NCBI GenBank assembly: GCA_964647025.1
Contig: CAZYFU010000001.1
Coordinates: 293-64,292, forward strand
Source of the DNA: an uncultured Myxococcales bacterium
GTDB taxonomy: Bacteria; Myxococcota_A; Polyangia; Fen-1088
Direction: 5' to 3'
DNA length: 64,000 bases
Shown here: one piece after another, positions 18,276-64,000 of the stretch
Layout of the letters: every line of letters begins with the position of its first letter
Numbering within the stretch: position 1 is the stretch's first letter
Made by a program: the position numbers and the translations under genes
The notes under the pieces: model-generated
Told to the model about the DNA's origin: nothing
What the model saw: the letters and a program-made list of their open reading frames with translations, nothing else
Database searches by the model: none

Positions 18276-18310
18276 CCCTTTCTAGCCGTTTCAAAGCGCC
18301 AACAACATCG

Positions 18311-30150: not shown

Positions 30151-30267
30151 GCAACCTCCGGACGGCAATCGAGATTGTAGCGACGTGACCGCAGCGACGC
30201 CACGCCCATGTCGATAGACGGCCGTTAATTCCATTCCATCGCACGTCGGGATCGTTATAGTGGCGAT

Positions 30268-31800
<1,533 letters not shown>

Positions 31801-38760: not shown

Positions 38761-38849
38761 CACCGGGTCCCGAGGCGGCGAGCCGCTACTTCCGCGATGG
38801 CCAGCGGATGGCCCGGCCCGTGCTGCGCAGGGCGCTGCCGCTTCACCGG

Positions 38850-44236: not shown

Positions 44237-44587
44237 TCAGTACGCGTGGCAGCCGAAACAATCCGGGGTCACGCCAGCTTGTTCATGGCAGCGATCGCAG
44301 AACTGCTGCCGGTTGGCGTGACAGCCCTGGCACGAAGAGATCCCTTGAGCCTGCGCGCTCCGGTCGCCGCTCCTCACCACGCGATCACGCATCGCCTTGA
44401 GGTGGGTCATGTGCTGGTAGCGCATCTCTGCTCTCGGCAGGACGCAACGGGTGCCCGCGCGTGCAGGCTCGAGCCATGGCGAGGATGGCGAGGGGCGCGC
44501 CGCGAAGCCAACCAGCGCCACCAGCAGCGGTACCACCAGCGCGGCGAGGCCAAGAACGACAACCCGCCGAGACCGCCTGGCGCTCAT
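44237..44587 (-). CDS. DsrJ-like triheme cytochrome c (second copy), translationally coupled to qmoC
   Basis: 116 aa. Signal anchor MSARRSRRVVVLGLAALVVPLLVALVG. Three CxxCH motifs (CQGCH, CDRCH, CFGCH). ATGA overlap with the qmoC stop and a GGAGG RBS. Paralogous to dsrJ at 62817. Confidence 0.75.
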   Translation of the reverse strand: MSARRSRRVVVLGLAALVVPLLVALVGFAARPSPSSPWLEPARAGTRCVLPRAEMRYQHMTHLKAMRDRVVRSGDRSAQAQGISSCQGCHANRQQFCDRCHEQAGVTPDCFGCHAY

Positions 44588-48058: not shown

Positions 48059-49330
48059 CTACCCTCCCCCCGCCGAGCAGACGGCCAGGGCCCGCAGGAC
48101 CGCGGCGGTCGCATCGCGGACCGCACAGGCGACGTCCATCGGTTCACGCGCACAGCCGGCGACCAGCTGGCCTGCCGATGGCTGCATCTGGCTGAGGAAA
48201 CCGTAGCGGTCGCGCGCCAGATCTGGCTTGGCTGGGGACGAGACTATGCCCGTGGCCAGCACCACCAGATCGACACGGTGGCGAAGACGCTTGCCCTGGT
48301 TCGTGTCCTCGACGTCGAGGATCGGTTTGCCTGCGTCCACCGTCACTTTCGACACCTTGCCCGGAACGAAGTGGATCTTGGGATCCCGCTCCGTCTCGGC
48401 CAGGAAGGTCTCCTGCCGGCCAGTGGCTCGTCGGTCGATGTAGTAGATGGAGATCTCGGCATCCGGGAGCTGCGCGCGCACGTAGCGCGCATGCTTGATC
48501 GAGGCCATGCAACAAAGTCCCGAGCAGTAGGGCAAATGGGCATCGTCGCGGGAGCCCGCACACTGGACGAAGGCCACGCTGGCAGGCGCACCACCGTCGG
48601 ACGGGCACACAACGCGGCCCGCGGTCGGGCCGTGAGGCGACGCCAGCCTTTCCATCATCATGTTGGTGATGATGTCCGGGTGCGCGCCGATGCCGAGGTC
48701 GGTGAGGTTCGAGGCCTCGTACGGTTGCCATCCCGTGGCCCAGATGACGGCCGCCACATCCAGGTCGAAAGGCCGTGGTTGCATGGACAAGTCAATGGCC
48801 TGCGAGGGACACGCGGAAGCGCACTTTGCGCAGCTTGCGCCGGTGCACGCCTCGCCGTCGATGGTGTAGCGGGTGGGGAAGGCCCCTGGGTACGTCAGGT
48901 ACGCCGCCTTGCTCTTGCCGAGCCCGAAGTCGAAAGCGCTGGGCCGCTCGACCGGACACACGGACGCGCAGGTTCCGCACGCCGAACAGTGCTCGGCGAT
49001 GAAGCGCGGCTCCTGCCGAAGCGAGACCCGGTACTTCCCCGGCGCTCCCGACACGGCCAACACCTCGGTCAATGTGTGAACCGTGATGCGTGGGCTGGTG
49101 CGGATGCGACGCAGGTTGATCTCCAAGCCGCACACCGGCGGGCACAGCTTGGGGAAGTACTGGTACATCTGGGCCACGCGGCCGCCGAGGTTCGGCTCGC
49201 GCTCGACCAGCACGACGTCGCACCCGGCCTCCGCCGCCTCGACGGCGGCGGAGATCCCGGCAATGCCTCCGCCGACGACGAGCAGCTTGCCGCGCGTCCG
49301 GCCGGGTGCTGTGGTGCTTGGGGTGGTCAC
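48059..49330 (-). CDS. qmoA: Qmo subunit A (HdrA-like flavoprotein)
   Basis: FAD-binding LLVVGGGIAGISAA. HdrA-like Cys motifs (CSACGTCASVCP, CAKCASACP). A GTG start at 49330 overlaps the aprA stop (GTGA). The ORF-track ATG at 49381 would overlap aprA by 55 nt. Confidence 0.8.
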   Translation of the reverse strand: MTTPSTTAPGRTRGKLLVVGGGIAGISAAVEAAEAGCDVVLVEREPNLGGRVAQMYQYFPKLCPPVCGLEINLRRIRTSPRITVHTLTEVLAVSGAPGKYRVSLRQEPRFIAEHCSACGTCASVCPVERPSAFDFGLGKSKAAYLTYPGAFPTRYTIDGEACTGASCAKCASACPSQAIDLSMQPRPFDLDVAAVIWATGWQPYEASNLTDLGIGAHPDIITNMMMERLASPHGPTAGRVVCPSDGGAPASVAFVQCAGSRDDAHLPYCSGLCCMASIKHARYVRAQLPDAEISIYYIDRRATGRQETFLAETERDPKIHFVPGKVSKVTVDAGKPILDVEDTNQGKRLRHRVDLVVLATGIVSSPAKPDLARDRYGFLSQMQPSAGQLVAGCAREPMDVACAVRDATAAVLRALAVCSAGGG

Positions 49331-51231
49331 CGCTCGGAGTCGCGCGTGAGGTACTTCACCGGGCGCTTGATCATCGTCCATTCGCCCGTCTGCGGATCCC
49401 GTTTGGTGTTGCAGAACGCCAGCCAGTTGGCCTGGTCCAGCGTCGGCTTGTCAGAGCGCACGTAGTAGCCGGGCCACCGGGTCTCGTCCCGGAACAGCAT
49501 GGACCGCATGTGCGCCTCGGCTTGCAGCAGGCGGTGCCGGTTCTCCCAGCAGCGCATCAGCTCGTGCAGGGTCTCGGCGCCCAGCTTGTCTGCGTCCTCG
49601 CGCAGGAAGGCCAGCATCTCCAGGCCCTTTTCGAGCTGGGTCTTGCTGGTGGCGAGCTGGGTGGACACGCCGCCCGCGTACTCGTCCATGATCTTCTGCA
49701 AGCGAGCCATCATCTGCTTCGGGCGCAGGTAGGCGGGGTTGATGTCCGGATCCGTGGTCTCCTCCTTGTGCTGCTCGAAGTTCGAGAGGGGCTTGAGCAT
49801 CTCGCCGATCATCCCCTGAACCTGAGCGTCAGAGACCGGCGCCCCCGCGCCCTTGTCGACGATGAACTGCAGCGCCGCTTTGCCGGCGATGCGCCCCTCG
49901 GTGAACGAACCCGACGAGAACTTGTGGCTGGAGGCGCCGCTGGCGTCCCCCGCCGCGAACAGCCCCTGCACGGTGGTCATGTTCGCGTAGCCCCAGAAGT
50001 ACTCGTTCTCGGTGTCGCCGGTCTGCAGATCCTTCGGCCCCGACACCCACGCGCCCGAGGCGCCCGAGTGCGATCCGATGAAGTAGGGCTCGCAGGCCAT
50101 GATCTCCGACGGCTTCTTGTCGGGCTCGACGTTGGTGGACGCCCACAAGAGCGCCTGGGCGATGGTCATGTCCAGGAAGTCCTCCCACGCCTCGCTCTCC
50201 AGCTCCTTCAGCTTCTTCTTGGCTGCCTTCTCGTCGGGCATCGACTGGCTGATCTTCTTGATCGCCTCTTCGGTGCGCATGTAGATGGGGCCCTTGCCCT
50301 TCTGGATGTCGAGCATCATGAGCCAATTGCGCAGGTTGGCCGGGGTCGGCTTGGCCTGGCCGTACGGCCCCCACTTGGTCAGCTCGGCGGCGTTGGTGGT
50401 CATGTAGTCTTCGCCGAGGGCGTTGGTGGCGAGCGACTTGAACAGCAGGAACCACGCGCCCACGGGGCCGTATGCATCCTTGAAGCGCACGGGGACGAAG
50501 CGGACTTCCTGGCAGGTCATCTCGGCACCCGCCGAGATGGTGAACGCGGCGCTGCCGGCCGAGTTGAAGGGCGGATACCACGAGCGGCCGAGGCCCTCGC
50601 CGGTGGAGCGCGGGCGGAACACGTGCACCGCGCCGCCCATGGTGGCCAGCACGGCCTTGGCCTTGAAGATATAGACCGTGTTCTCGCGGTTCGAGAAGCC
50701 GACGGCGCCCACGCAACGGCCTTCGGACATCAGCGGGTGCGTGATGAACACGCGCTCGAAGTACTGGCCACCACACTCGGCCAGCGCCTTCTTGGCGGCC
50801 TCGGCGACGATGACCTTGTACGACTCGCCGCTGATCATGACCTGCCAGCGCCCCTCGTGGACGTAGTTGCCGGCGTCATCCTTCCAGATGGGCAGGCCCC
50901 ACTTCTCGAACATGTGCACCGTGGAATCCACGTGGCGGGCGATGTTGGCCACGAGGTCCTCGCGGGTGATGCCCATCAGGTCGTTGCGCACGTAGTCGAC
51001 ATAGTCGCGCAGGGTGTTCTTCCCGCCGTTCGAGTCGAGATAGAGATTGATGGCGGACAGGCCCATGGCGACGGCACCAGATCTGTCCATGGCGGCCTTG
51101 TCCACCAAGGTGACCTTGAGCCCGTGCTTCTTCGCCCAGTGGGCGGTCTCGACCGCGGCTCCGCAAGCGGCCATACCGCCGCCGCAGATGAGGAGGTCGG
51201 TTTCGACCACGACTGTTTTGAAATCCGACAT
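49327..51231 (-). CDS. aprA: adenylylsulfate (APS) reductase alpha subunit
   Basis: Start at MSDFKTVVVETDLLICGGGMAACGAA (FAD fold) with a GGAGGA RBS. 634 aa. AprA-specific blocks conserved throughout. The upstream 121 codons of the long ORF are junk. Confidence 0.9.
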   Translation of the reverse strand: MSDFKTVVVETDLLICGGGMAACGAAVETAHWAKKHGLKVTLVDKAAMDRSGAVAMGLSAINLYLDSNGGKNTLRDYVDYVRNDLMGITREDLVANIARHVDSTVHMFEKWGLPIWKDDAGNYVHEGRWQVMISGESYKVIVAEAAKKALAECGGQYFERVFITHPLMSEGRCVGAVGFSNRENTVYIFKAKAVLATMGGAVHVFRPRSTGEGLGRSWYPPFNSAGSAAFTISAGAEMTCQEVRFVPVRFKDAYGPVGAWFLLFKSLATNALGEDYMTTNAAELTKWGPYGQAKPTPANLRNWLMMLDIQKGKGPIYMRTEEAIKKISQSMPDEKAAKKKLKELESEAWEDFLDMTIAQALLWASTNVEPDKKPSEIMACEPYFIGSHSGASGAWVSGPKDLQTGDTENEYFWGYANMTTVQGLFAAGDASGASSHKFSSGSFTEGRIAGKAALQFIVDKGAGAPVSDAQVQGMIGEMLKPLSNFEQHKEETTDPDINPAYLRPKQMMARLQKIMDEYAGGVSTQLATSKTQLEKGLEMLAFLREDADKLGAETLHELMRCWENRHRLLQAEAHMRSMLFRDETRWPGYYVRSDKPTLDQANWLAFCNTKRDPQTGEWTMIKRPVKYLTRDSER

Positions 51232-51233: not shown

Positions 51234-51731
51234 CTACTTTCCTCCGTTCTGCGATCGGGTCAGGGCAAGCTCCGGAAGGCCGGCGTGCTTGACGGGTCCT
51301 TGTTCCGTGTTGAGGGCCGCGGGCTCTCCGACCAAAAGCGGGCTCGACAGCTCCTCGGATGCCGTGGGGAAGTGGCCGTACGGCTCCACCTGGCCTTCGG
51401 ACACGCCCCGTCGGATGGGGAACTTGAAACGCTTGGGTCTGATCTCGGGATTGCGGAACTGCACGGTCCACATGATCTCCTCCGTGCTGCGCATGGCGCT
51501 CACGCTGGCGCCCATGGGGACGAAGTCCGAGTAGCCGCGCACCTCGATGGCCTGGTTCGGACAGAGCTTCACGCAATTGAAGCACTCCCAGCACATCACG
51601 GGGTCTCGGTTGTACGCCTTCATCTTCTGACGATCCAAGGTCATCAGATCATTGGGGCAGATGTACTGACAGGCCGTCTTGTCCAAGGCCTTGCACCCAT
51701 CACACTTGCTGGCGATGACATAACTTGGCAT
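51234..51731 (-). CDS. aprB: APS reductase beta subunit (2x[4Fe-4S])
   Basis: Start at MPSYVIASKCDGCK. Cys clusters CDGC...C...CP and CWECFNCVKLCP. 165 aa. Stop/start overlap (TGATG) with the upstream dsrP-like gene. Confidence 0.88.
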   Translation of the reverse strand: MPSYVIASKCDGCKALDKTACQYICPNDLMTLDRQKMKAYNRDPVMCWECFNCVKLCPNQAIEVRGYSDFVPMGASVSAMRSTEEIMWTVQFRNPEIRPKRFKFPIRRGVSEGQVEPYGHFPTASEELSSPLLVGEPAALNTEQGPVKHAGLPELALTRSQNGGK

Positions 51732-52963
51732 CAGGTCTCCATTGGCGCGGCCCCTGCCATGCCCGGTTGGCGCGCGGTTGAGGGTGGTTGTTGTTCTGCA
51801 TGGACTGAAACAGGCACGCTTGCCTGGGCGATCGCGAAGATGGGACGGGCGAGCAGGAACGCCAAAGCACCGCCGGCGTAGATGCCGACGACGATGGCGA
51901 CCTCGGGCAAACTCGGCCGGTAGTCGCTGACATAGCCGAGCGGCGACGGAACGAAACCGGAGGTGACCAGGCAAAGTCCTTTGTCGACGAGGACCGAGAC
52001 GAGAATCGAAGCCGTGGCGACGGTCGCGAGCGCCGGACGGCGCCGAAGGGCCGGCACCAACAGCACGACCAGCGCGAACAGAAGCAGACCCCAGGAGAGG
52101 TAGTTGAAGGCGAGAAGTCCGTTGTGGCCGTCGAGCCCCAAGAAGAGGTATGCGAGGTGCTCCCGCGCATCCGGAACTCCGGAGTACAGCGCGGTGAACG
52201 CCTCCAGCCCTGCCAACAGCAGGCTCAGGACGGCGGCGTAGGTCATGACCACCGAGAGCCGCACGATGGCCTCACGGCCGACATCGAACACCTTGGCGCG
52301 TGCCAAGGCCCCGGCGAGCAGGATCAACAAGGCCGGCCCCGATGCGAAGGCCGTTGCCAAAAAGCGCGGCGCCAGCACCGCCGTCATCCACGCGGGCCGG
52401 GCCGACAGCCCCGCGTAGAGCAGCGCCGTCACCACGTGGATACCAATGGCCCAAGGAATGGTGGCGAGCGCCAAGCCTCGTGCCCACTTCGCCGACGAGG
52501 GCCCGCGCGAGAACAGGGCCAGGAAGAGACCGACGACCGACAGCCCGAGATAGCCCGTCAACGTCAGACAGTCCCAGAACATCAAGGACGACGGCGACGG
52601 GTAGAGCAGGATGTTGAGCAGCCGCCGCGGCTGACCGAGATCCACGAAGATGCACGACAGCGCCTGGCAGAGCGCGATGATGGCGACCACCTCTCCCAAA
52701 ATCAGCGCCCGAGCGAACACCTTCTGGCGGTGCACGTAGTACGGCAGCAGCACCGTGACCGCCGACGCCCCGATGCCCACCAGGAAGGTGAACTGCGCGA
52801 TGTAGAGCCCCCAGGGTACGTCGCGCGAGAGGCCCGTCACGCCGAGGCCATCGCGGCTCTGCACGGCGTACGCGACCGCGCCAAGCAGGGCCAGAAGGAA
52901 CAGCACCGCCATCGCGACTCGACCGAACGTGCGGGTAGGCGTTTGTTGCGGCATCGGCGTCAC
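51731..52963 (-). CDS. NrfD/PsrC-family integral membrane protein (DsrP-like quinone-interacting subunit)
   Basis: 410 aa, about 10 TM helices, NrfD-family architecture. It is coupled (ATGA) to the upstream FeS subunit gene. Confidence 0.75.
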   Translation of the reverse strand: MTPMPQQTPTRTFGRVAMAVLFLLALLGAVAYAVQSRDGLGVTGLSRDVPWGLYIAQFTFLVGIGASAVTVLLPYYVHRQKVFARALILGEVVAIIALCQALSCIFVDLGQPRRLLNILLYPSPSSLMFWDCLTLTGYLGLSVVGLFLALFSRGPSSAKWARGLALATIPWAIGIHVVTALLYAGLSARPAWMTAVLAPRFLATAFASGPALLILLAGALARAKVFDVGREAIVRLSVVMTYAAVLSLLLAGLEAFTALYSGVPDAREHLAYLFLGLDGHNGLLAFNYLSWGLLLFALVVLLVPALRRRPALATVATASILVSVLVDKGLCLVTSGFVPSPLGYVSDYRPSLPEVAIVVGIYAGGALAFLLARPIFAIAQASVPVSVHAEQQPPSTARQPGMAGAAPMET

Positions 52964-53745
52964 AGCAGATAGAAGATGCTCGGTTCGGTGCCGAGCCCGG
53001 GCTTACGGCGCAGCACCTGACGGGACGCCAAGAGCTGCCTGAGCGGTGAGCTGGCGTCCTCCAGATTGCCGAAGGTCAGCGCCGCCGTTCCACGCACGCG
53101 ACAAGTGTCCACGCACAAGGGGATCTGCCCTGCGTCCAGCCGCTCCACGCACAGGTTGCACTTCTCGACCACTCCCGCGGTTCGCGCGGGATAGTTGTTC
53201 GCGGTCTGTTCGGGCTTCGGATTCTCCCAATTGAAGCTGCGGGCACCGAAGGGGCACGCGGTCATGCAGTAGCGGCAACCGATGCAACGATGCGCATCCA
53301 TCGCCACCACGCCATCGCTGCGGCGCCAAGTCGCTTGCGTGGGGCACACCCGGGTGCAAGGGGCGTTCGTGCAGTGGTTGCACAGCACCAGCACGGGCAT
53401 CTGCCGACGAGCATCGCTGTCGTAGGGATGGGCTTGCTCGGGGAAGACACGAGCATAGTGCTCCTTCCATAACCACTTGATCTCGTGTTTGGGATCCGCC
53501 ATCACCGGCACCCGGTGGGCAGCGTGGCAGGCGTCGATACAGGCCCGACACCCCGACTGGCTGGCGCAGCGACCGAGGTCGACGGCCATTCCCCAGCGCG
53601 GGATCGCCCGCCCCGCGACGCTTGCCAGCCCCGTGCGCGACGAGACCCCCGTGACCGCCGCCGCCCCCAGCGCGGCCCCACCTGCGGTCAGCAGAGCCCG
53701 CCGGCTGAGCTCGCACGTCTCGAGCGGTCCTTGGGCCCGCTTCAT
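52960..53745 (-). CDS. periplasmic 4x[4Fe-4S] ferredoxin subunit with Tat signal (DsrO/PsrB/HmcB-like)
   Basis: Twin-arginine motif SRRALLTAGGAALGAAAV. Four Cys clusters: CASQSGCRACIDAC, CNHCTNAPCTRVCP, CIGCRYCMTACP, CNLCVE...CVDTC. Start taken at MKRAQGPL. Confidence 0.75.
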   Translation of the reverse strand: MKRAQGPLETCELSRRALLTAGGAALGAAAVTGVSSRTGLASVAGRAIPRWGMAVDLGRCASQSGCRACIDACHAAHRVPVMADPKHEIKWLWKEHYARVFPEQAHPYDSDARRQMPVLVLCNHCTNAPCTRVCPTQATWRRSDGVVAMDAHRCIGCRYCMTACPFGARSFNWENPKPEQTANNYPARTAGVVEKCNLCVERLDAGQIPLCVDTCRVRGTAALTFGNLEDASSPLRQLLASRQVLRRKPGLGTEPSIFYLL

Positions 53746-53801
53746 CGCTTGCGCTCCAGCGCTCGTCGGCATCGGCACACGTGCACGCCCGCTGGCACAG
53801 C

Positions 53802-53817
53802 ACAAACCGTGCCGATC
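53802..53817 (-). promoter_or_regulatory. candidate sigma-54 (-24/-12) promoter for the dsrO-like..qmo operon
   Basis: The minus strand reads cGGCACG-gttt-gTGCt, close to the TGGCACG-N4-TTGCW consensus, with -12 GC and -24 GG at the correct spacing. It lies about 60 nt upstream of the start at 53745. Confidence 0.3.
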
Positions 53818-54189: not shown

Positions 54190-54205
54190 CGGCACGGCGT
54201 TTGCT
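54190..54205 (+). promoter_or_regulatory. candidate sigma-54 (-24/-12) promoter upstream of dsrA
   Basis: cGGCACG-GCGT-TTGCT matches TGGCACG-N4-TTGCW except for the first T. It lies about 25 nt upstream of the dsrA GTG at 54230. Confidence 0.35.
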
Positions 54206-54229
54206 GTGCGCAGGTAGCCGAGAAATCCC

Positions 54230-55408
54230 GTGAGCAAAGACAGCAAGACTCCCAAGGTCGATGAGCTCGAGTCCGGTCCCTGGCCGAGCTTCGTCAGAGA
54301 GATCAGAAGAAGCGCCGACAACCCGATGTCGGCTGACCTGTTGGGCGTCCTCGAACGCTCCTACAACGAGAAGATCGGGCACTGGAAACACGGCGGCCTG
54401 GTTGGCGTGAAAGGCTACGGCGGCGGCGTGATCGGCCGGTACAACGACCTCAGCGCCGAGTTCCCCGAGGCGGCCGAGTTCCACACCGTGCGAATCAATC
54501 CCCCGGCCGGCTGGTTCTACACCTCGGACGTGATCCGCAAGCTGTGCGACATCTGGGAAAGGCACGGCTCGGGCCTGACCAATTTCCACGGCGCCACGGG
54601 GGATGCCGTCTTCCTCGGCGCCAAGACCAGCGAGCTCGAACCGCTCTTCGACGAACTGCTGGCGGCCGGCTTCGATCTCGGCGGCTCCGGGTCGGCGCTT
54701 CGCACGCCGAGCTGCTGCGCCGGCAAGGCCCGTTGCGAGTGGGCCTGCTTCGACACGATGGACGTCACGCAGGAGATGACCCAGTCGTTCCAAGACGAGA
54801 TGCACCGCCCGGCGTTCCCATACAAGTTCAAGATCAAGGCGTCGGGGTGCCCCAACGATTGCGTGGGCGCCATCGCGCGCTCGGATCTCTCCATCATCGG
54901 GACCTGGCGTGACGACATCCAGATCGACCAAGCGGCCTTCGCCAAGTACGTCGCCGACGACAAGATCGACATTCAGCGCGACGTGATCGATCGATGCCCC
55001 ACCCGATGCATGAAGCTCGCCGGGGCCGAGCTTGCCATCGACAACGATGAGTGCGCCAAGTGCATGCATTGTATCAACGCCCTGCCGAACGCCCTCTCGC
55101 CCGGCAAGGACCGTGGCGCCATGCTGCTCGTCGGAGGGAAAGCCCCCATCCTCGGCGGTGCGCTGCTCTCGTCGGTGCTGGTTCCGTTCATCAAGCTCGA
55201 GGCCCCGTACGATGACATCAAGGAGCTCCTGACCGCGGTCTGGGACCTCTGGGCCGAGCACGGCAAACACCGCGAGCGGGTCGGCGAGTTCATCCAACGC
55301 ATTGGCCTGGCCAACTTCCTCGAACAAATCGGTCTCGACCCGCAGCCCGAGATGGTGGCGCACCCGAGAACCAACCCGTACATCGCCCACCGCGAGGACA
55401 AACCATGA
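54230..55408 (+). CDS. dsrA: dissimilatory sulfite reductase alpha subunit
   Basis: 392 aa. Siroheme/FeS-binding blocks ([17 protein letters not shown]; CP.RC...C) and a ferredoxin insert ([12 protein letters not shown]). Confidence 0.88.
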
Positions 55409-56511
55409 GCGCTTCCCCCACCGGCAAACGCAAGACCGACATCGGCGCCCCCGACTACCGCAAGTTCCTTCCGCCCGTGATCGCGCGCAACTATGGACAG
55501 TGGGTTCGCCACGAGATCCCGCGCCCCGGCGTCCTGGTCCACACGGCCGAGTCCGGCGAGAAGCTCTTCACGGTGCGCGCCGGCTCGCCACGTCTGCTCA
55601 GCACGAAGACACTGCGCCTGTTCGCCGACCTGGCCGACCAGTTCTCGCAGGGCTTCTTCCGCTTCACCAGCCGCAACAACGTCGAGTTCCTCCTGGCTGA
55701 CGAAAGCAAGGTCGAGCCGCTGATCGCGCGCCTCGCGGCCGAGGGCTATCCCGTCGGCGGCACCGGCCCCTCGATCACCAGCATCGTGCACACGCAGGGC
55801 TGGGTTCACTGCCATTCGGCGGCGTCCGACGCGTCCGGCGTGGTCAAGTCGGTGATGGACGAGCTGTTCCCGTATTTCGGCAGCATGAAGCTTCCGGCCC
55901 GCATCCGCATCGCGTTCGCCTGCTGCCTGAACATGTGCGGCGCGGTTCACTGCTCTGACATCGCCATCCTGGGCCTGCACCGCAAGCCGCCCAAGATCAA
56001 CCACGGAACCCTGTTCAAGACCTGCGAGATCCCGACCACGGTCGCATCGTGCCCCACCGGCGCAGTTCGCCCGGTCACCGTCGACGGCAAGCCCTCGCTA
56101 GAGGTCATCGAAGGCCAGTGCGTGTTCTGCGGCAACTGCTACACCGTGTGCCCGTCCATGCCGCTCAACGATCCCGAAGACGGGGTGTCGATCTGGGTCG
56201 GCGGCAAGGTCTCGAACGCCCGCAGCGAGCCCATGTTCTCCAAGCTCGCCATTCCGTTCATACCCAACAATCCGCCGCGCTGGCCCGAGGTGACCGCTGC
56301 GGTCAGGGCCATCGTCGAGCTGTACGCCGCCCACGCGCGGCCATTCGAGCGCATGGGCGAGTGGATCGGCCGTATCGGCTGGCCGCGCTTCTTCCGCATG
56401 GCCGACATTCCTTTCACCCGCGACCACATCGACGACTTCACGCACGCCGGAGAGACCTACAAGCGGTCGACCCAGCTTCGGCGTTCACCTGCCTGGAACG
56501 GTGGAGGCTAG
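55405..56511 (+). CDS. dsrB: dissimilatory sulfite reductase beta subunit
   Basis: 368 aa. The [13 protein letters not shown] and CPTGA...[10 protein letters not shown] motifs are present. ATGA overlap with dsrA. Confidence 0.88.
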
Positions 56512-56514
56512 CCC

Positions 56515-56748
56515 ATGGAGAACCTGACCGCAGAAGCACTCGCCGACGCCATGTACGCCATGGTCAAGGACTGCCACGGCAAGCGCCAGCTCAAGCCTCT
56601 CGATCTGACCAAGGCCATGATGGAACGCTTCGGCGAGGGCTGCGACAAGAGCCTGTGCAAAGAGGCCATCCGGCTGCTCATCGACGACGAGCGCTGCACC
56701 TATTCCTACGCGGGCGGCAGCTACATCGTTCTTCCTCCGGAGAAGTAG
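56515..56748 (+). CDS. dsrD: DsrD (small winged-helix protein of reductive-type dsr operons)
   Basis: 77 aa, located immediately after dsrB. The C-terminal pattern LLIDDERCTYSYAGGSYIVL resembles DsrD's ...L..DevleYwSSGSTtmY. Confidence 0.7.
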   Translation: MENLTAEALADAMYAMVKDCHGKRQLKPLDLTKAMMERFGEGCDKSLCKEAIRLLIDDERCTYSYAGGSYIVLPPEK

Positions 56749-56751
56749 GCT

Positions 56752-58434
56752 ATGGCGCTGCTGCGAAAGAAGGAGGGCACGAAGCCGCTGCAGTTTCGCA
56801 CCAGCGCGCCGTCCAGCAGCGCGGTCTCCACGCTGCGCCCCCGGCGCACCCCCAAGTCGAGCCCCTGCCAGTCCTCTTGCCTGGCCGGGACCGACGTGCG
56901 CGGCGTGGTGGCTCTGCTCGCGCAGCGAGAGAAGCTGGGGCTGACGGTCGACCAGGCCTGCGAGCGCGCGTTCGCCCTGATCGCCGAGACCAATCCCTTC
57001 CCCGCCACGACGGGCCGCATCTGCCCCCATCGCTGCGAGGAGAACTGCAGTCGCCATCAGAAGGACGGCGGCGTTGCCGTCGGCACCATCGAGCGCTTCA
57101 TCGGAGACTTTGCCCTAGAGCATGGTCTAGCCTTGCCCGGCGGCCCGGCCTCCCCGACCCAGACCGAGAGAGTAGCGATCATCGGAGCCGGACCAGCCGG
57201 GCTTTCTTGCGCCTACCAGCTCGTGCGTCGCGGGTACGCATGCACGTTGTTCGAGGGCATGCCACAGCCCGGCGGCATGCTCCGGTACGGCATCCCGTCG
57301 TACAGACTTCCCGCGCACGTCTTCGAGGGTGAGATCGACCGCATCCTTCAGCTCGGGGTCGAGCTGCGAACGCGAACCATGATCGGTCGTGACGTCAGCT
57401 TGGACGAGCTTCGCCAGCAGTTCGCCGCCGTGTTCGTCGCCCCCGGTGCGGCGGTCAGCCGCGCAGTCGACATCCCGGGCGCGAAAGGCGCCTGTGTCTT
57501 CAGGGCCGTGGATTTCCTGCGCGACGTCGCCAGGCATGCCCCTCCAGGCCTCGGTCGTCACGTGGTCGTGGTGGGCGGGGGAAACACCGCCATCGACGCG
57601 GCCCGGGTGTCCGCACGCCTGCTCGGAGGGCACGGTGAGATCACCCTGCTTCGGCAGGAGAACGAAACCGTAGACGAGGATCTTCGCGACGCCATGGAGG
57701 AGGGCGTCTCGGTGGAGTTCCTGTCGACGTTGGACTCGGTGGTCCGCGACGCCATGGGCGGCATCGATCACGTCGTCATCCAGCGCATCGAGTTGGGAGA
57801 GAAGGACGGAAATGGCTTCCCGACGCTGATCCCCTTGGCTGGCAAGAGCTACGAGCTGCGCGCCGATGCCGTCATCCTGGCGCTGGGACAGAAGCCCAAC
57901 GTGAGCCCGATCTTCCACGAGAACCCCGACCAGTACGAGCCCGACGCCACGGGGAAGACCAAGGCGGCGCGGGTGTGGCGTGGCGGCGACGCGGTCACTC
58001 CCAGCTTCGCCGCGGTGGTCATCGGCCAGGGTCGCCAGGTTGCGTTGTCCATCGACGCCGAGCTGCGAGGCCGTCCGCTCGAAGAACCGGCCAAGCTGCC
58101 CGACCTGGCCACGAGCCGGCTCAAGCTCGAGTGCTACGATCGGATGCCGAGGCTCGGCCGGCGGCTCATTCCGGTGCGAGAGCGCCTCGCGGATCTGCAA
58201 AGCGAGATCGAGCCCGGCTACGAGCCCACCGCGGTGTTGCGAGAAGCCGCTCGCTGTCTGTCGTGCGGCAACTGCTTCGGCTGCGAGCGCTGCTGGATGT
58301 ACTGCACGCCCGGCTGCTTCTCGAAGGTCGCAAAGACGGAACCAGGAACCTACTTCACCATCAACCTCGAGAAATGCGACGGCTGCCGCAAGTGCGCCGA
58401 AGAGTGTCCGTCGAGCTTCTTGGAAATGGGCTGA
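56752..58434 (+). CDS. dsrL: GltD-family NAD(P)H:acceptor oxidoreductase with C-terminal ferredoxin domain (DsrL-like)
   Basis: FAD fold (VAIIGAGPAGLSCA) and NAD(P) fold (VVVVGGGNTAIDAA) are present. N-terminal Cys cluster (CPHRCEENC) and C-terminal 2x4Fe-4S (CLSCGNCFGCERC; CDGCRKCAEECP). Position within the dsr operon supports the call. Confidence 0.7.
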   Translation: MALLRKKEGTKPLQFRTSAPSSSAVSTLRPRRTPKSSPCQSSCLAGTDVRGVVALLAQREKLGLTVDQACERAFALIAETNPFPATTGRICPHRCEENCSRHQKDGGVAVGTIERFIGDFALEHGLALPGGPASPTQTERVAIIGAGPAGLSCAYQLVRRGYACTLFEGMPQPGGMLRYGIPSYRLPAHVFEGEIDRILQLGVELRTRTMIGRDVSLDELRQQFAAVFVAPGAAVSRAVDIPGAKGACVFRAVDFLRDVARHAPPGLGRHVVVVGGGNTAIDAARVSARLLGGHGEITLLRQENETVDEDLRDAMEEGVSVEFLSTLDSVVRDAMGGIDHVVIQRIELGEKDGNGFPTLIPLAGKSYELRADAVILALGQKPNVSPIFHENPDQYEPDATGKTKAARVWRGGDAVTPSFAAVVIGQGRQVALSIDAELRGRPLEEPAKLPDLATSRLKLECYDRMPRLGRRLIPVRERLADLQSEIEPGYEPTAVLREAARCLSCGNCFGCERCWMYCTPGCFSKVAKTEPGTYFTINLEKCDGCRKCAEECPSSFLEMG

Positions 58435-58437
58435 CCC

Positions 58438-59889
58438 GTGCAAGCCCGGACCATCGCCATCCCCAGGATCGTCATCGCGGGCCTCGCAGGGGACTCCGGC
58501 AAGACCCTGGTGGCGGCCGGGCTCGTTCGGGCGCTCGCCAGGCGAGGCGTCCGGGTTGCACCGTACAAGAAAGGCCCTGACTACATCGATCCCGCCTGGC
58601 TCGCCGCTGCCGCCGGTCGTCCAGCCCGGACCCTCGACACGTATTTGATGTCCAGCTCGGCGTTGCGCGAATCCCTCGCCAGCGCTGGCGATGCCGATCT
58701 GGTCGTCATCGAAGGGAACCGAGGACTCTTCGATGGCATGGATGTGCAGGGCAGACATTCCACGGCCGAGCTGGCAAAGACTCTTCACGCCTCGGTCGTC
58801 CTGGTAGTCGACGTCAGCAAGGCGACCCGCACCGTCGCCGCGTTGGTGCTTGGCTGTCTGGCGTTGGATCCCTCGCTCCCTCTGGCTGGCGTGATTCTCA
58901 ATCGCGTGGGGACCCGGCGACAAGAGCAGCTGATCCGCGACGTCCTGGCCGCCACCACCTCGGTGCCAGTCCTGGGTGCGATCCCCAGGCTGAGATCAGA
59001 GCTGCTGCCTGCCCGGCACCTCGGACTCCTCATGCCCAGCGAACGGCCAGATTGCAGACAGGCTCTCGATCAGATGGCGGATGCCGTCGACGCGGGCGTC
59101 GACTGCGAGGCCATCGTCCACTTCGCCAGCGCCGCACCGCCCTTGCCGTGTGCCGAGGTCCCAGCGGCGCAGGGGCACGGAGACGCAACGGTCACCGTCG
59201 GGTACCTCAAGGACGAAGCCTTCTGTTTCTACTACTCGGAAAATCTCGCCGCCTTGGAGGCCGCCGGTGCCAAGCTGGTGCCGGTATCGCCGATTCGAGA
59301 CCGCTCGCTGCCCGCGCTCGATGCGCTATACGCCGGTGGCGGCTATCCCGAGGAGCACGCGGCTGCTCTGTCGGCGAACGGAGACTTCCGGGGCGCCCTC
59401 GCCGGCCGCATCGCCTCGGGCTTGCCGGTCTGGGCCGAGTGCGGTGGCCTCATGTACCTGGCATCGACGTTGATCACGAAGGGCAATGCCTTCCCCATGG
59501 TGGGCGCCTTGCCGTTGACTGTCGAGCAGACCAATCGGGTCCAGGCGCATGGCTACGTGGAGGCCACCGTCGACACGCCCAATCCGTTTCTTTCGGTGGG
59601 AACCAAGCTCCGAGGCCACGAGTTCCACTACTCGAAGTTGGCAGAGCCGACGGCTCCGTTGACCAGCGCACTGTTCCTCGATCGCGGCGTCGGCGTGGGC
59701 GCCGGTCGCGACGGAATCGTCCAGGGCCGGGTCTTTGCCAGCTACGCACACGTCTTCGCGCCTGGTACGCCGACGTGGGCGCCCGCACTGGTGCGCGCGG
59801 CGCACGAAGCGCGACGACAGACTTGCCCCAACCCCATCGCAATAGGAGACCGCTGTGGCATCAATAACAGTCCAGAACCTGCAAATTGA
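58438..59889 (+). CDS. dsrN: cobyrinic acid a,c-diamide synthase homolog (siroheme amidase DsrN)
   Basis: CbiA/CobB family: N-terminal ATPase (AGLAGDSGKT) plus C-terminal glutamine amidotransferase domain (GLPVWAECGGLMYL). GTG start. Located in the dsr operon. Confidence 0.8.
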   Translation: MQARTIAIPRIVIAGLAGDSGKTLVAAGLVRALARRGVRVAPYKKGPDYIDPAWLAAAAGRPARTLDTYLMSSSALRESLASAGDADLVVIEGNRGLFDGMDVQGRHSTAELAKTLHASVVLVVDVSKATRTVAALVLGCLALDPSLPLAGVILNRVGTRRQEQLIRDVLAATTSVPVLGAIPRLRSELLPARHLGLLMPSERPDCRQALDQMADAVDAGVDCEAIVHFASAAPPLPCAEVPAAQGHGDATVTVGYLKDEAFCFYYSENLAALEAAGAKLVPVSPIRDRSLPALDALYAGGGYPEEHAAALSANGDFRGALAGRIASGLPVWAECGGLMYLASTLITKGNAFPMVGALPLTVEQTNRVQAHGYVEATVDTPNPFLSVGTKLRGHEFHYSKLAEPTAPLTSALFLDRGVGVGAGRDGIVQGRVFASYAHVFAPGTPTWAPALVRAAHEARRQTCPNPIAIGDRCGINNSPEPAN

Positions 59890-60172
59890 AATCGACGAGG
59901 ACGGTTTCATTCAAGAGCCCGACAAGTGGAGCGAGGCCGTCGCCGCCGCATTGGCTGCCACCGAGGGCGTGGGTGAGCTTGGCGAAAGACACTGGGTGCT
60001 GATCAACTATCTGCGCGACTACTACAAGAAGTTCGGCATGGCCCCCATGATTCGAAAGATGTGCAAGGAGGTGAACATGAAGCTTACCGAGGTCTACGAG
60101 CTGTTCCCGACCGGCCCGGCCAAGGGCGCCTGCAAAGCCGCGGGCCTGCCCAAGCCCACGGGTTGCGTTTGA
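59855..60172 (+). CDS. dsrC: DsrC (TusE/DsrC family sulfur carrier)
   Basis: 105 aa. N-terminal VDEDGF motif. C-terminal arm ...CKAAGLPKPTGCV carries the two conserved Cys. Confidence 0.9.
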   Translation: MASITVQNLQIEIDEDGFIQEPDKWSEAVAAALAATEGVGELGERHWVLINYLRDYYKKFGMAPMIRKMCKEVNMKLTEVYELFPTGPAKGACKAAGLPKPTGCV

Positions 60173-60182
60173 GGCTCGCCAC

Positions 60183-61193
60183 ATGGGCAGACACCTGACG
60201 ATGCACCTGGGCGGCGCGCTCGGCGCCGTGCTCATCGCTTGCGGTCTGCCCATGTTGGCCGTCGCCGTCACTGGACGCGGCTGGCTGGTGGCGCTCTCGG
60301 TGGCGGTTCTTGCCGTACCGTTCCTCGTCGTGGGCTTCGTCGCGAAGCTTCTCCGGTGGATTCGCGTTCCCATCCCCTTCCGCATTCCACTCACGGTCGG
60401 GCAGCAGCGCTCGTTGCGCACGGTCGGCCATCAGCGAACCCTCACACCTCACACCGCGCCCCAGGCCGTCGCCCGAGCAGTCCTCGACATCGGCCTCTTT
60501 CGTCCCCTGACCCGAACCACGCCCAGCGCCCGCTCGCTCGGCGACGGCTTGGACCACGGCGCCACGCGGACACTCTGGCTCGCGGCCGGACTGCTCCACC
60601 TTTCCCTGGCCGTGATCCTCGTTCGCCACGCGCGCATGTTCCTCGAGCCCGTGCCGAGCTTCGTCGTCTGGCTGGAGGACATCGACTCGGTGGGTGAGGT
60701 CACGCTGCCGAGACTTCACGCGAGCAGCCTGGTGTTCGGTTTCGCGCTCCTGTTCCTGCTTGGCAGGCGGCTCTGGCTGGCCAGACTGCGCTACATCTCC
60801 CTGGCTGCCGACTACTTCCCGCTGCTGTTGCTCTTGGCTATCGCCACCTTCGGCCTGCTCACCAGGCACGTGACCGGCTCCGACGTTCCGGCGCTGAAGC
60901 AAGCGCTCGTCGGCCTGACCGGGGGATCGCTCGCGCTCCCCGCGACGATGGATCTCTTCCTGGTCGTGCATGTGTTCCTGATTGGTGTGCTCCTGGTCTA
61001 CTTCCCACTGAGCAAGCTCATGCACGCCCCCGGGGCTTGGCTGAGCCCGACGCTGACCATGGCGAACACGAACCGCGAGCGGCGCCACGAGAACCCCAAC
61101 AATGCTTCCGTCGAGGTCCTCCACTACGCCGACTACGAGGACGCCTTTCGTGGCCCGATGATCGCCGCGGGTCTGCCAGTCGAGAAGGAGTGA
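60183..61193 (+). CDS. dsrM: DsrM (NarI/HdrE-like membrane cytochrome b)
   Basis: 336 aa with 5-6 TM helices and conserved His in TM2/TM5. Located immediately upstream of dsrK. Confidence 0.8.
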   Translation: MGRHLTMHLGGALGAVLIACGLPMLAVAVTGRGWLVALSVAVLAVPFLVVGFVAKLLRWIRVPIPFRIPLTVGQQRSLRTVGHQRTLTPHTAPQAVARAVLDIGLFRPLTRTTPSARSLGDGLDHGATRTLWLAAGLLHLSLAVILVRHARMFLEPVPSFVVWLEDIDSVGEVTLPRLHASSLVFGFALLFLLGRRLWLARLRYISLAADYFPLLLLLAIATFGLLTRHVTGSDVPALKQALVGLTGGSLALPATMDLFLVVHVFLIGVLLVYFPLSKLMHAPGAWLSPTLTMANTNRERRHENPNNASVEVLHYADYEDAFRGPMIAAGLPVEKE

Positions 61194-61194
61194 C

Positions 61195-62817
61195 ATGGCG
61201 GCCAAACCCGACAGCCCCGACTACTACGACAAGGCCCGGCTGGAACGGGTCGATCACCGCCCACCACACGCGCCGTGGCGAGACCTGGCGACGACCTTCC
61301 AGCCCGGCAATTTCCTTCACCCCGCGAAACCCAAGAACCTCGAGGCCATGGGGTTGCCGTCCGCGCACGCGTGGTCCCCGCTCGATGAGGACTGGAAGCT
61401 GCCCGACAACTGGAAGCAGATAGTCATCGATGGCATGCGCGAGCGGCTGGCCGCCTCGCGAACCCTGCGCCTGTTCATGGACACCTGCGTGCGTTGCGGT
61501 GCCTGCGCCGAGAAGTGTCCTATCTTCATCGGGACCGGCGATCCAAAGAACATGCCGGTGTTGAGGGCCGAGCTTCTACGCTCGGTCTACCGAAGGTACT
61601 TCACCACGGCTGGCCGTATCATGGGCGAGCTGGCAGGCGCCCGCGAGCTCGACGAGGCGGTCATCAAGGAATGGTTCAAGTACTTCTTCCAATGCACCGA
61701 GTGCCGACGCTGCGCCGTCTTCTGCCCCTACGGCATCGACACCGCCGAGATCACCATGCTGGGCCGCGATCTGCTGCTGCGACTGGGCCTGTCGGCCAAC
61801 TGGGTCATGGAGCCGGTCGCGAACTCATACCGCACCGGCAATCACCTGGGCATCCAGCCCCAAGGGGTGAAGGACTCGCTGGAGTTCCTGGCCGATGAGC
61901 TGGAAGAGGTGACCGGCATCCGCGTCGACGTACCCATCAACCGAAAGGGCGCCGACATCCTGTTCGTCACACCGTCGGGAGACTTGATTGCCGATCCCGG
62001 AACCTACACGGCGATGGGGTACCTGGCCCTGTTTCACGAGCTGGGGCTCAACTACACCTTCAGCACTTACGCTTCCGAGGGCGGCAACTTCGGGCTGTTC
62101 GCGTCGCCCGAGCTGATGAAACGTCTGAACGCGAAGATCTACGCCGAGGCCAAGCGGCTGGGCGTGAAATGGATCCTGGGTGGCGAGTGCGGACACATGT
62201 GGCGCGTGGTCCACCAGTACATGGACACCATGAACGGCCAGGCGAGCTTCCTCGAGGTGCCGACCTCACCCATCACCGGCACGCGCTTCGAGCACGCCCG
62301 CGGGACCAAGATGGTCCACATCGCGGAGTTCACCGCCGACCTCATCGCGCACGGCAAGCTCAGGCTCGACCCGAGCCGCAACGCCGCGGTGCGAGCCACG
62401 TTTCACGACTCCTGCAACCCTGCCCGGGCCATGGGGCTTCTGGAAGAGCCGCGCGACATCTTGCGTGCCGTCTGCAGCGAGTTCCACGAGATGGCAGCGG
62501 ACACCATCCGCGAGCGCACCCTGTGCTGCGGGGGCGGTGCCGGCCTGGCCGCCGACGAGAACATGGAGGTCCGTTTGCGCGCCGGCATGGGGCGGGGCAA
62601 GGCGGTGCAGCAGGTTCGCGATGCGCACGGCGTGAACACCCTGGTCACCATCTGCGCCATCGACCGAGCCACCTTGACCACGGTGTGCGACTACTGGTCC
62701 CCCGGCGTCCGCGTGGCGGGGCTTCACGAGCTGGTTGCCAATGCCCTGGTGATGAAGGGCGAGAAGCCGCGCGAATTGAACCTCCGCCAGGAACCCATCG
62801 CCGCGAGGCAAGCGTGA
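61195..62817 (+). CDS. dsrK: DsrK (HdrD-like, CCG-domain FeS protein)
   Basis: 540 aa. 2x4Fe-4S motifs (CVRCGACAEKCP, CTECRRCAVFCP). CCG-domain Cys (CCGGGAG, C..C). AAGGAG RBS. Confidence 0.88.
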   Translation: MAAKPDSPDYYDKARLERVDHRPPHAPWRDLATTFQPGNFLHPAKPKNLEAMGLPSAHAWSPLDEDWKLPDNWKQIVIDGMRERLAASRTLRLFMDTCVRCGACAEKCPIFIGTGDPKNMPVLRAELLRSVYRRYFTTAGRIMGELAGARELDEAVIKEWFKYFFQCTECRRCAVFCPYGIDTAEITMLGRDLLLRLGLSANWVMEPVANSYRTGNHLGIQPQGVKDSLEFLADELEEVTGIRVDVPINRKGADILFVTPSGDLIADPGTYTAMGYLALFHELGLNYTFSTYASEGGNFGLFASPELMKRLNAKIYAEAKRLGVKWILGGECGHMWRVVHQYMDTMNGQASFLEVPTSPITGTRFEHARGTKMVHIAEFTADLIAHGKLRLDPSRNAAVRATFHDSCNPARAMGLLEEPRDILRAVCSEFHEMAADTIRERTLCCGGGAGLAADENMEVRLRAGMGRGKAVQQVRDAHGVNTLVTICAIDRATLTTVCDYWSPGVRVAGLHELVANALVMKGEKPRELNLRQEPIAARQA

Positions 62818-63194
62818 TGGACGTCGGGAAGATCGTCGGCGGAGCCGTCATCGCGGCCGTGATCGCCGCCGGCCCGCTGTGGGTCGCCACCGTGCGCGGC
62901 GCGAAGACCGAACCACTTGCGCAGCCCATCGGGACTGGGCCATGCATCGAGGCCGCGGACGCCATGCGCACGCGCCACCCGGCCCTGCTCTCCACATGGC
63001 GCGAACAGGTGGTTCGCGAAGGCCAGCGCGCCTATCACACCACCGATGGACGCGACGTACGCATCGGCCTCGGCGAGACCTGCCTCGGCTGCCACGGCGA
63101 GGCCAGCAAGTTCTGCGACCGCTGCCACGCCCAGAATGCCGTCACGCTCTCTTGCTGGCAGTGCCATGCACAGTCGCCGATCGCGCGACCTTAG
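62817..63194 (+). CDS. dsrJ: DsrJ (periplasmic triheme cytochrome c)
   Basis: 125 aa. TM/signal anchor at the N-terminus. Three CxxCH motifs (CLGCH, CDRCH, CWQCH). Start overlaps the dsrK stop (ATGA-type). Confidence 0.8.
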   Translation: MDVGKIVGGAVIAAVIAAGPLWVATVRGAKTEPLAQPIGTGPCIEAADAMRTRHPALLSTWREQVVREGQRAYHTTDGRDVRIGLGETCLGCHGEASKFCDRCHAQNAVTLSCWQCHAQSPIARP

Positions 63195-63254: not shown

Positions 63255-64000
63255 ATGTACCCCATCATGCTCGATCTGCGCGGGCGGCCCTGTCTGCTCG
63301 TCGGCGCAGGCCCCATCGCGCATCGCAAGCTAATGTCTTTGCTGGCCGAAGACGCGCGCGTGACGGTGGTCGCGCCGACCGCGATAGAACCGATCGCGCA
63401 GCTAGCCGCAGCCGGAGCCATCGCACTGCACAAGCGGCCTTTCGCCGACGACGATGTGTCCGGCGCCGCGCTGGTGTTCGTCGCCACCGGCAAGCCCGAG
63501 GTCGACGAAAAGGTCGCGCAGGCCGCGCGGACTCGCGGTGTCTGGATCAACGTCGCGGACGTGCCTGCGCTTTGCGACTTTCACCTGCCGTCGCGCATTC
63601 AGCGCGGCGACCTCCAGATGGCCATCGCGTCGGGGGGGAACGCCCCGTTCGCGGTGCGCAGGTTGCGACAACTGCTCGACGCGAGGCTGGGTCCGGCGTG
63701 GATCGGGTGGATAGCCGCGGCCAAGAGATTCCGTCAGCGCGTGCAAGCAGCCAAGCTTCCTCCGGCTGCGGCCGACGGGGCGTTCGACCGCTTCGTGGCC
63801 AAGACCGTGGATCCGTCGACGCTCGCGGTGCGCGCCCCCACGGCCGATGAAGAGACCGCGTGGCTTTCCGACGACGCCCCCGCGAAGCCAGGACGCGTCG
63901 CCCTGGTCGGCGCGGGGCCGGGCAACCCCGGGCTGCTCACGGTGCGAGGCCTGCAGCTCCTGCGCACGGCCGACGCCGTCGTGTACGACCGACTGGCGAT
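63255..64000 (+). CDS. cysG: siroheme synthase (CysG: precorrin-2 dehydrogenase/ferrochelatase N-domain + uroporphyrinogen-III C-methyltransferase); runs off window end
   Basis: Manual translation from the ATG at 63255 gives [26 protein letters not shown]... (NAD-binding CysG-N). The methyltransferase motif [19 protein letters not shown]...ADAVVYDRL appears near the window end. Confidence 0.8.

Follow-up and report, generated by a model that had tools for sequence, protein, structure and literature searches.

In uncultured organisms, the presence of dsrD, the type of DsrL and the YRR motif of DsrL serve as genomic markers to tell sulfur reduction from sulfur oxidation. What do these markers say of a dissimilatory sulfite reductase (dsr) locus in which a DsrD-like gene and dsrL lie side by side? 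The locus occupies positions 54230-63194 of a stretch of 64,000 nucleotides (nt) with a G+C content of 65%, from contig CAZYFU010000001.1 of an uncultured Myxococcota bacterium (hereafter the window). We consider the region, with a probability of about 0.7, to be the core of a dissimilatory sulfate/sulfite-reduction island. The clade to which it belongs breaks two of the marker rules, with a DsrD-like gene that goes unseen by the Pfam model and a DsrL of type 2 that lacks YRR.

By homology, the gene content covers reduction of adenosine 5'-phosphosulfate (APS; AprBA-QmoABC), sulfite reduction (DsrAB, DsrC, DsrL and the DsrD-like protein), provision of cofactors through CysG and DsrN, and quinone-coupled reduction of the trisulfide (DsrMK, J, O, P). 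In such a pathway, AprBA, supplied by QmoABC, would turn APS into sulfite, which DsrAB together with DsrC would convert to the DsrC trisulfide; the first two electrons would pass to DsrAB from NAD(P)H via DsrL, the DsrD-like protein would act as activator of DsrAB, and DsrK of the DsrMK(J)(OP) complex would finally reduce the DsrC trisulfide to sulfide with menaquinol (Santos 2015; Loffler 2020; Ferreira 2022).

The gene string and its DsrAB

Nine genes follow one another on the plus strand in the order dsrA-B-(77 aa)-L-N-C-M-K-J, aa standing for amino acids. The same string had been given by the preliminary description of this DNA, and among its gene names only the label DsrD for the third is weak. 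The genes are packed as described there, by an ATGA overlap and short gaps: from dsrA to dsrJ the junctions measure -4, +3, +3, +3, -35, +10, +1 and -1 nt, hence between -35 and +10 nt throughout. The dsrA gene (alpha subunit, 392 aa; 54230..55408, plus strand; TIGR02064, 550 bits for a cutoff of 393) shows the CX5C and CX3C siroheme/iron-sulfur (FeS) motifs in its translation, and shares the 4-nt ATGA overlap with dsrB (beta subunit, 368 aa; 55405..56511, plus strand; TIGR02066, 485 bits for a cutoff of 342).

Relatives were collected by a scan of one genome per species with the 77-aa family as query, which gave 138 loci; L-numbers below are locus identifiers. DsrA and DsrB were placed in a joint neighbour-joining (NJ) tree in which the two paralogues root each other. 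The reductive reference was the Desulfovibrio vulgaris-type dsrABDN locus L164. As oxidative references we used metagenomic dsrAB-EFH-C-MK-L-JOP-N clusters fetched with Allochromatium vinosum DsrE (checked against PDB 2HY5), all of them A. vinosum-like, i.e. gammaproteobacterial-like; a search for oxidative references among plasmids by tblastn of DsrA gave AsrC-like matches only. The dsrEFH-linked clade is monophyletic in 100 of 100 replicates for both subunits, with the window outside it, and the window, its Myxococcota relatives, D. vulgaris and all carriers of the DsrD-like gene form a clade in 99/100 replicates for DsrA and 64/100 for DsrB. Identities in the trimmed DsrA alignment are 90% to L005 (88% by tblastn), 56% to D. 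vulgaris and 48-52% to the dsrEFH-linked rDsrA; an exact-sequence look-up of the window DsrA returned no record. A tblastn search with A. vinosum DsrE over the 64-kb window gave nothing better than an E value of 0.6. The trees therefore place DsrAB on the reductive bacterial side and outside the oxidative (rDsr) clade, which is how the clade test proposed in the preliminary description turned out.

DsrL and the direction of the pathway

The dsrL gene (56752..58434, plus strand; NF009410, 476 bits) starts 3 nt after the DsrD-like gene and codes for a 560-aa iron-sulfur flavoprotein of the GltD/NfnB type, with ferredoxin domains at the N- and C-terminus (Fer4_20, Pyr_redox_2 and Fer4_21; PF14691 at 36-125, PF07992 at 140-426, PF14697 at 507-559). 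This is the domain order by which DsrL has been recognised (Loffler 2020). In the same scheme, DsrL-2 is defined by a YRR motif that binds the 2'-phosphate of NADPH (Y310-R311-R312 in Thermotoga maritima NfnB), and those DsrL-2 that are paired with reductive DsrAB have Arg at the position of NfnB Cys42; DsrL-1 has non-phosphate-binding residues at the YRR positions and uses NAD(H), and DsrL-1A additionally carries two insertions of ~30 aa.

At the cluster-ligand site, the window DsrL reads S26-T-L-R29-P, with S26 and R29 at NfnB C39 and C42, that is, the signature of a reductive partner. The DsrL-1A references read T-S-H/Y-K-C-P at this site and S-L-F in place of YRR, in line with their published description; they are 640-652 aa long, with an insertion of ~32 aa in the NAD(P) domain and a linker longer by ~30 aa. 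The window protein is without the insertion and is 27-32% identical to them over full-length matches.

The YRR(T) motif for the NADPH phosphate is replaced in the window by L299-L300-R301-Q302-E303-N304-E305 (codons at 57646..57666, plus strand). Alignments to NfnB (4YLF) and to further PDB relatives (9N5U, 9BOV) set LLR, LRQ or a four-residue gap against YRR. The motif is missing from the window, L004-L013 and L015, and a consensus (I/L/V)(L/V)YRRT...EMPA is found in L014 and in L016-L082 except L077. Among the loci without it, L004-L009, L012/L013 and L015 keep ITLL-RQENE, and L010/L011 have RRRN or other YRR-less variants. In a database of 5.8 billion proteins, the 77 nearest DsrL clusters (at least 51% identity) all lack YRR, most with a conserved ITLL-RQENE-x-x-D and a minority with RRRN or similar, and from rank 78 on (at most 49% identity) all clusters have it. 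No protein among these 77 clusters and beyond is named DsrL by any source. The conservation of the LLRQENE-type replacement argues for a nucleotide site that is functional but altered.

NJ trees with DsrL-1A as outgroup recover a clade of the YRR-less DsrL in 200 of 200 replicates. This clade groups with the DsrL of L014/16/19/20/25/27, to the exclusion of acidobacterial and gemmatimonadal DsrL-2, again in 200/200, and monophyly of the YRR-type is never recovered (0/200). Because the YRR-less clade nests inside YRR-type DsrL-2, these trees make the loss in the window clade a derived one. By tree position and Arg ligand, the protein is thus classed as a DsrL-2, in a YRR-less variant; type 2 is also the one that the preliminary description named for DsrL found with DsrD, and the motif that defines this type in Loffler 2020 is absent. 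Given the replaced segment, the preference for NADPH has probably been lost in the DsrL of the window clade, and NADH may be the substrate. We found no description of a YRR-less DsrL-2 variant in the searched literature that mentions YRR together with DsrL, and a YRR-less DsrL-2 subfamily appears to be undescribed.

A second DsrL without YRR stands in L077 (uncultured bacterium ERP019367_co2_29). It is unrelated to that of the window, lies by dsrAB and a DsrD-like gene, and reads VTVLAKFAKD at the site, so that YRR may have been lost more than once.

We favour a reductive direction because of the clade of DsrAB, the DsrD-like gene, the lack of dsrEFH and the Arg-type DsrL-2, and the pathway probably runs that way. 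Several points weigh against this. Direction cannot be read from sequence, and reductive-type DsrAB can serve sulfide oxidation or disproportionation (Thorup 2017). Loffler 2020 argue that sulfite reduction needs NADPH, and the window DsrL is without the NADPH motif. The trees are NJ trees, with oxidative references that are A. vinosum-like only and with DsrL-1B, DsrL-2A/2B and Desulfurella left out. The link of the 77-aa open reading frame (ORF) to DsrD is remote, with an hhalign probability of 20% and no PF08679 match for the ORF itself. Lastly, the scan of window ORFs turned up cysD and cysNC but no sat.

An alternative is a cluster that is mainly oxidative or disproportionating, or reversible, in which the YRR-less DsrL would reduce NAD+ with electrons from DsrAB, in the manner of DsrL-1 in sulfur oxidisers, and AprBA-QmoABC would oxidise sulfite to APS. 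Loss of YRR makes the nucleotide site resemble that of DsrL-1, the NAD(H) users of Loffler 2020; the residues that face YRR in the window are LLR or LRQ, followed by acidic E/N/E. Reverse running of reductive-type clusters has been proposed by Hausmann 2018 (PMC6018796) and Thorup 2017. However, DsrAB lies outside the oxidative clade, no dsrEFH was found in the window with A. vinosum DsrE as tblastn query, and a DsrD-like gene is present, DsrD being missing from all known rDsrAB sulfur oxidisers (Ferreira 2022). In addition, DsrL has Arg as its N-terminal cluster ligand, like the DsrL-2 that accompany reductive DsrAB, and is itself nested in this reductive-associated group. We consider mainly oxidative, disproportionating or reversible use unlikely, though not negligible in view of the loss of YRR and the precedents for reversed reductive-type systems.

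Should DsrL use NADH, then either sulfite reduction would be driven by NADH, against the generalisation that NADPH is required, or a reductive-type Dsr system would run reversibly. The window clade provides a natural testing ground for whether feeding DsrAB in the reductive direction really takes NADPH.

The DsrD-like protein

The third gene (56515..56748, plus strand) codes for a winged-helix protein of 77 aa that falls outside Pfam PF08679 and is recognised by its homologue family, fold and hhalign alignment. It is preceded by a ribosome-binding site, GGTGGAGG, has 3-nt gaps on either side, and lies directly 3' of dsrB, as dsrD does in the D. vulgaris locus L164. Even with the threshold set to E<=10, PF08679 and the NCBIfam models gave no hit to the ORF, and searches of the PDB with phmmer and hmmsearch, with the single sequence and with a profile, gave no match to the DsrD structure 1UCR. 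The gene is nonetheless real and conserved, with 392 homologues, almost all of 76-81 aa. A precomputed Pfam domain is absent from 120 of the 120 that were listed; in contrast, homologues of canonical DsrD all carry PF08679.

An AlphaFold2 model of the protein (mean confidence, pLDDT, 91) has the winged-helix topology a1-b1-a2-a3-b2-b3; its helices span residues 6-20, 28-42 and 45-57, its strands residues 62-64 and 70-72. Its Foldseek matches are all winged-helix domains (MCM4 winged-helix domain, SSV1 F-93, cullin WHB, Fur, Z-alpha), and 1UCR is absent from the top 50. At the profile level, a shallow alignment (A1) matched 1UCR over 19 columns only, with E=0.3 by hhalign. A more diverse alignment (A2) was therefore needed, made of 41 of the 135 representatives from an exhaustive HMMER search. 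It aligns to 1UCR over 58 columns (E=0.003), and to an alignment of canonical DsrD over 66 collinear columns (E=1.1e-3, probability 20%). None of 120 column-shuffled controls reached the observed score of 24.3 (mean 10.9, maximum 21.95). These data suggest that the ORF represents a divergent DsrD-like subfamily that is probably homologous to DsrD and may be its functional equivalent.

The label DsrD given in the preliminary description thus has a remote link in its favour, made up of the collinear profile alignment, the winged-helix fold and the gene position, and finds no backing in the Pfam model or in single-sequence alignment. Could the ORF instead be another winged-helix protein that merely sits at the position of DsrD, such as a regulator that binds DNA or a DsrN partner dependent on thiols or metal? 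Besides the failure of PF08679 and 1UCR searches and the generic character of the Foldseek matches, this would account for several traits. The YWSSGSTT motif of canonical DsrD is missing and reads YSYAGGSY. The protein has four cysteines (C20, C43, C48, C61), of which C43, C48 and C61 are conserved in 68, 78 and 80 of 80 species loci, and canonical DsrD is Cys-free (Ferreira 2022). The acidobacterial gene pairs with dsrN and not with dsrB. Among the distant members, PF08679 is reached at E<0.01 by 3 of 41, and equal numbers match other winged-helix families (MCM4_WHD, TBPIP).

Against such a protein stand the profile alignment to canonical DsrD, collinear, full-length and not matched by any of the shuffles; the equal size (77 and 78 aa) and topology; the gene position between dsrB and dsrN/L, to be compared with dsrABDN of D. 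vulgaris; and the 3-nt gaps on both sides, which imply stoichiometric co-expression with DsrAB. Published surveys also count the family as DsrD: Hausmann 2018 treat it as (acidobacterial) DsrD, and Table S1 of Diao 2023 (PMC10591310) scores dsrD=1 for Polyangia and Acidobacteriota genomes assembled from metagenomes (MAGs). We therefore regard a protein other than a functional DsrD equivalent as quite improbable, and retain the DsrD-like assignment. An explicit statement that this family falls outside PF08679 and has conserved Cys appears not to have been made before. The three cysteines, kept across phyla in loci L004-L083, are absent from more distant members of the family; they may have a redox or metal role.

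The divided DsrMKJOP genes and known systems

A second operon runs on the minus strand, divergent from dsrA across ~424-484 bp, in the order dsrO-dsrP-aprB-aprA-qmoA-qmoB-qmoC-dsrJ2. The first gene, dsrO (52960..53805; NF045797, 275 bits), codes for the periplasmic FeS subunit; it probably starts with the ATG at 53745, upstream of the twin-arginine (Tat) motif SRRALL. It overlaps by 4 nt with dsrP, the NrfD-type membrane subunit (51731..52963; NF045798, 317 bits, slightly under the 350-bit cutoff). The ATG of aprB (165 aa, 51234..51731; translation MPSYVIASKCDGCK...; PF12139 APS-reductase_C on the L166 gene of identical length) overlaps the stop codon of dsrP by 1 nt. There follow aprA (634 aa, 49327..51231; TIGR02061, 863 bits), qmoA (48059-49381, or with start 49330) and qmoB (45818-48055), both with HdrA-like matches, and qmoC (44584-45813/45852; NF038018, 319 bits); for the three qmo genes, the lengths of their counterparts in L166 and L168 were also taken into account. 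The operon closes with a dsrJ-like paralogue found by tblastn, dsrJ2 (116 aa, 44237..44587; NF038038, 75 bits, E=5e-21), whose ATG overlaps the qmoC stop codon. It has three CxxCH motifs (CQGCH, CDRCH, CFGCH), is 37% identical to dsrJ, and recurs as an exact protein 3' of qmoC in three independent Logan assemblies. The preliminary description had rightly placed dsrOP in this operon and had overlooked the second dsrJ-like gene at its end.

Gene callers put an ORF of 150-259 aa across the dsrO/dsrA intergenic region (53781-54233, plus strand, in the window; 6703-7482 in L166), which shortens dsrO to 180 aa. We judged it spurious, a probable false call, because it runs antisense over the 5' end of dsrO and the intergenic region, where it spans the putative promoter, and has an Arg-rich translation.

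On the plus strand, dsrL is followed by dsrN (58438..59889; NF002204, 432 bits; PF07685, PF01656), which codes for a 483-aa homologue of CobB-type siroheme a,c-diamide synthases, and by dsrC (105 aa, 59855..60172; PF04358, 126 bits; TIGR03342, 117 bits). The C-terminal arm of DsrC, ...GACKAAGLPKPTGCV, keeps both cysteines, C93 and C104, in the arrangement CysB-X10-CysA with CysA penultimate (C93KAAGLPKPTGC104V), as had been suggested for verification. Next come dsrM, the membrane di-haem b subunit (60183..61193; NF038037, 310 bits), dsrK, the HdrD-like FeS catalytic subunit (61195..62817; NF045796, 680 bits), and dsrJ, a membrane-anchored trihaem cytochrome c with CLGCH, CDRCH and CWQCH motifs (62817..63194; NF038038, 115 bits). 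The siroheme synthase noted downstream is indeed present, cysG beginning 60 nt past dsrJ (63255..64000, plus strand; NF007922, PF13241); only its 5' part lies in the window. In contig L166, whose DsrL is 98% identical and whose gene order is alike, the operon goes on past the window end (16504-20707 of L166): cysG at full length codes for 572 aa, and a pair of dsrM-like (297 aa) and dsrK-like (532 aa) genes comes after it, reminiscent of acidobacterial dsrM2K2.

All five DsrMKJOP subunits are thus encoded, each with a match to its NCBIfam model (DsrP below cutoff), with dsrMKJ and dsrOP on opposite strands and ~6.4 kb apart and not in one contiguous operon. How unusual is this split? The closest loci of the 77-aa family (71-82% identity) are in MAGs from fen, peat and soil that are filed under Myxococcales, Polyangiaceae or 'delta proteobacterium', and the next closest belong to Acidobacteriota, Gemmatimonadota and others. 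When the window proteins were mapped onto these loci, L004-L008 showed the layout of the window, qmoBA-aprA-dsrPO divergent from dsrABD-L-N-C-M-K-J, with cysG also in L007. Farther Myxococcota, like other phyla, carry dsrAB-D-(L)-N-C-MKJOP as one string; in Acidobacteriota, a dsrD-dsrN pair comes after dsrAB-L-C-MKJOP (loci L037-L083), as published by Hausmann 2018.

In the 45 loci that are informative downstream of dsrJ, dsrO is contiguous in 40, divergent in four and not nearby in one; L005, on a truncated contig, has the divergent arrangement too and makes a fifth case. The split, which the preliminary description had called atypical, is therefore genuine and atypical, and it is specific to the clade of the window, shared by the five closest Myxococcota genomes. 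An assembly or binning artefact, conceivable as the source is probably a metagenome assembly, is exceedingly improbable and was ruled out by the divergent dsrPO and dsrA in five independent species-level MAGs (L004-L008), by two near-identical Logan contigs with the same arrangement, and by the 1-nt dsrP/aprB and 4-nt dsrO/dsrP overlaps.

The pairing of qmoC with dsrJ2 extends to L002/L011, L003 and L012/L013, a distribution that makes it older than the move of dsrOP. With dsrJ2 fixed 3' of qmoC and dsrOP heading aprBA-qmoABC, it is a possibility that the periplasmic/quinone module J-O-P serves the Qmo-Apr branch besides DsrMK. We tentatively entertain a broader picture, for which the odds are less than even: a coherent, environmentally widespread Myxococcota subfamily of DsrL-2, with YRR-less replacements (mostly ITLL-RQENE) in at least 78 database clusters, would have secondarily lost YRR and yet still be coupled to reductive DsrAB and the DsrD-like protein, with the J-O-P module possibly serving Qmo-Apr too.

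Upstream of dsrA, 25 nt before its start codon, lies a sigma-54-type -24/-12 element, CGGCAC-N5-TTGCT (54190..54205, plus strand). Within the window, its occurrence does not exceed chance (2 matches for 1.8 expected), but GGCAC-N5-TTGCT is found again in the relatives L004-L007, at distances of 37-69 nt before dsrA. Transcription of dsrA is, judging from these motifs, probably sigma-54 dependent. A sigma-54-dependent activator is encoded along with a PAS histidine kinase at 30229-31800 and 34769-36034 (both plus strand), 18-24 kb upstream of the cluster; in L011, the gene just upstream of dsrA is one for a sigma-54 activator.

Farther away, the minus strand encodes a bifunctional CysNC (ATP sulfurylase large subunit/APS kinase; 11982-14120) and CysD (13922-14887); Table S1 of Diao 2023 lists a Polyangia MAG (o_Fen-1088) with sat=0, cysD=1 and cysN=1. 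CysDN may be the source of APS for the dissimilatory pathway. Ketosynthases similar to FabH and type III polyketide synthases, together with an MMPL/HAE3 transporter, lie at 17199-18281 (minus), 38451-39230 (plus) and 26037-28520 (minus), among many ORFs without NCBIfam match, which is consistent with a secondary-metabolism neighbourhood of myxobacterial type.

The combination of reductive DsrAB, DsrD and DsrL-2C has been reported in Myxococcota (Diao 2023; Klier 2024). Indeed, Diao 2023 list DsrD with DsrL-2 in Acidobacteriota, Zixibacteria, Bdellovibrionota, Armatimonadota, Actinomycetota, Myxococcota, Kapabacteria and several candidate phyla. The co-occurrence of DsrD and DsrL, which the preliminary description had thought limited to a few unusual lineages, is therefore already known from many phyla. 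The same census scored one Polyangia (o_Fen-1088) MAG as dsrL=0, which may come from an incomplete MAG or from a profile blind to the YRR-less variant. Relocated dsrOP that lead an aprBA-qmoABC-dsrJ2 operon, and the qmoC-linked dsrJ paralogue, appear to be undescribed. The clade flags peat and soil Myxococcota as probable players in the sulfur cycle, with unusually wired DsrJOP and Qmo modules.

Compared with the clusters of Acidobacteriota and other phyla (Hausmann 2018; Loffler 2020; Diao 2023), the window is alike in dsrAB, D, L, N, C, MKJOP, aprBA and qmoABC, in a DsrD-like family that is 51-66% identical, in DsrAB of the reductive side, and in the Ser/Arg N-terminal ligands and short form (~550-575 aa) of DsrL. 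It differs by a DsrL without YRR, by a dsrD between dsrB and dsrL and not with dsrN after dsrP, by dsrOP in the apr-qmo operon and by an extra dsrJ after qmoC. The DsrL-2 of Desulfurella amilsii (DaDsrL-2), which Loffler 2020 characterised as an NADPH:acceptor oxidoreductase, has the same domain architecture and likewise goes with a reductive DsrAB; from its published description, it has YRR and uses NADP(H) only, whereas the window protein has LLRQENE there. A. vinosum DsrL-1A, from a dsrABEFHCMKLJOPN cluster, is likewise an FeS flavoprotein partner of DsrAB without YRR, but has Cys instead of Arg at NfnB-C42, the ~32-aa insertion and longer linker, and only 27-32% identity, and its gene follows dsrK, unlike that of the window.

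D. vulgaris DsrD (1UCR; PF08679) resembles the 77-aa protein in size (78 aa), winged-helix topology, position after dsrB and collinear profile; identity is ~18%, the Pfam model misses the 77-aa protein, and a Lys-rich, Cys-free protein with YWSSGSTT contrasts with one that has three conserved Cys and YSYAGGSY. Finally, the canonical DsrMKJOP operon has the same five subunits, which the window splits into dsrMKJ and dsrOP on opposite strands, with a dsrJ paralogue by qmoC.

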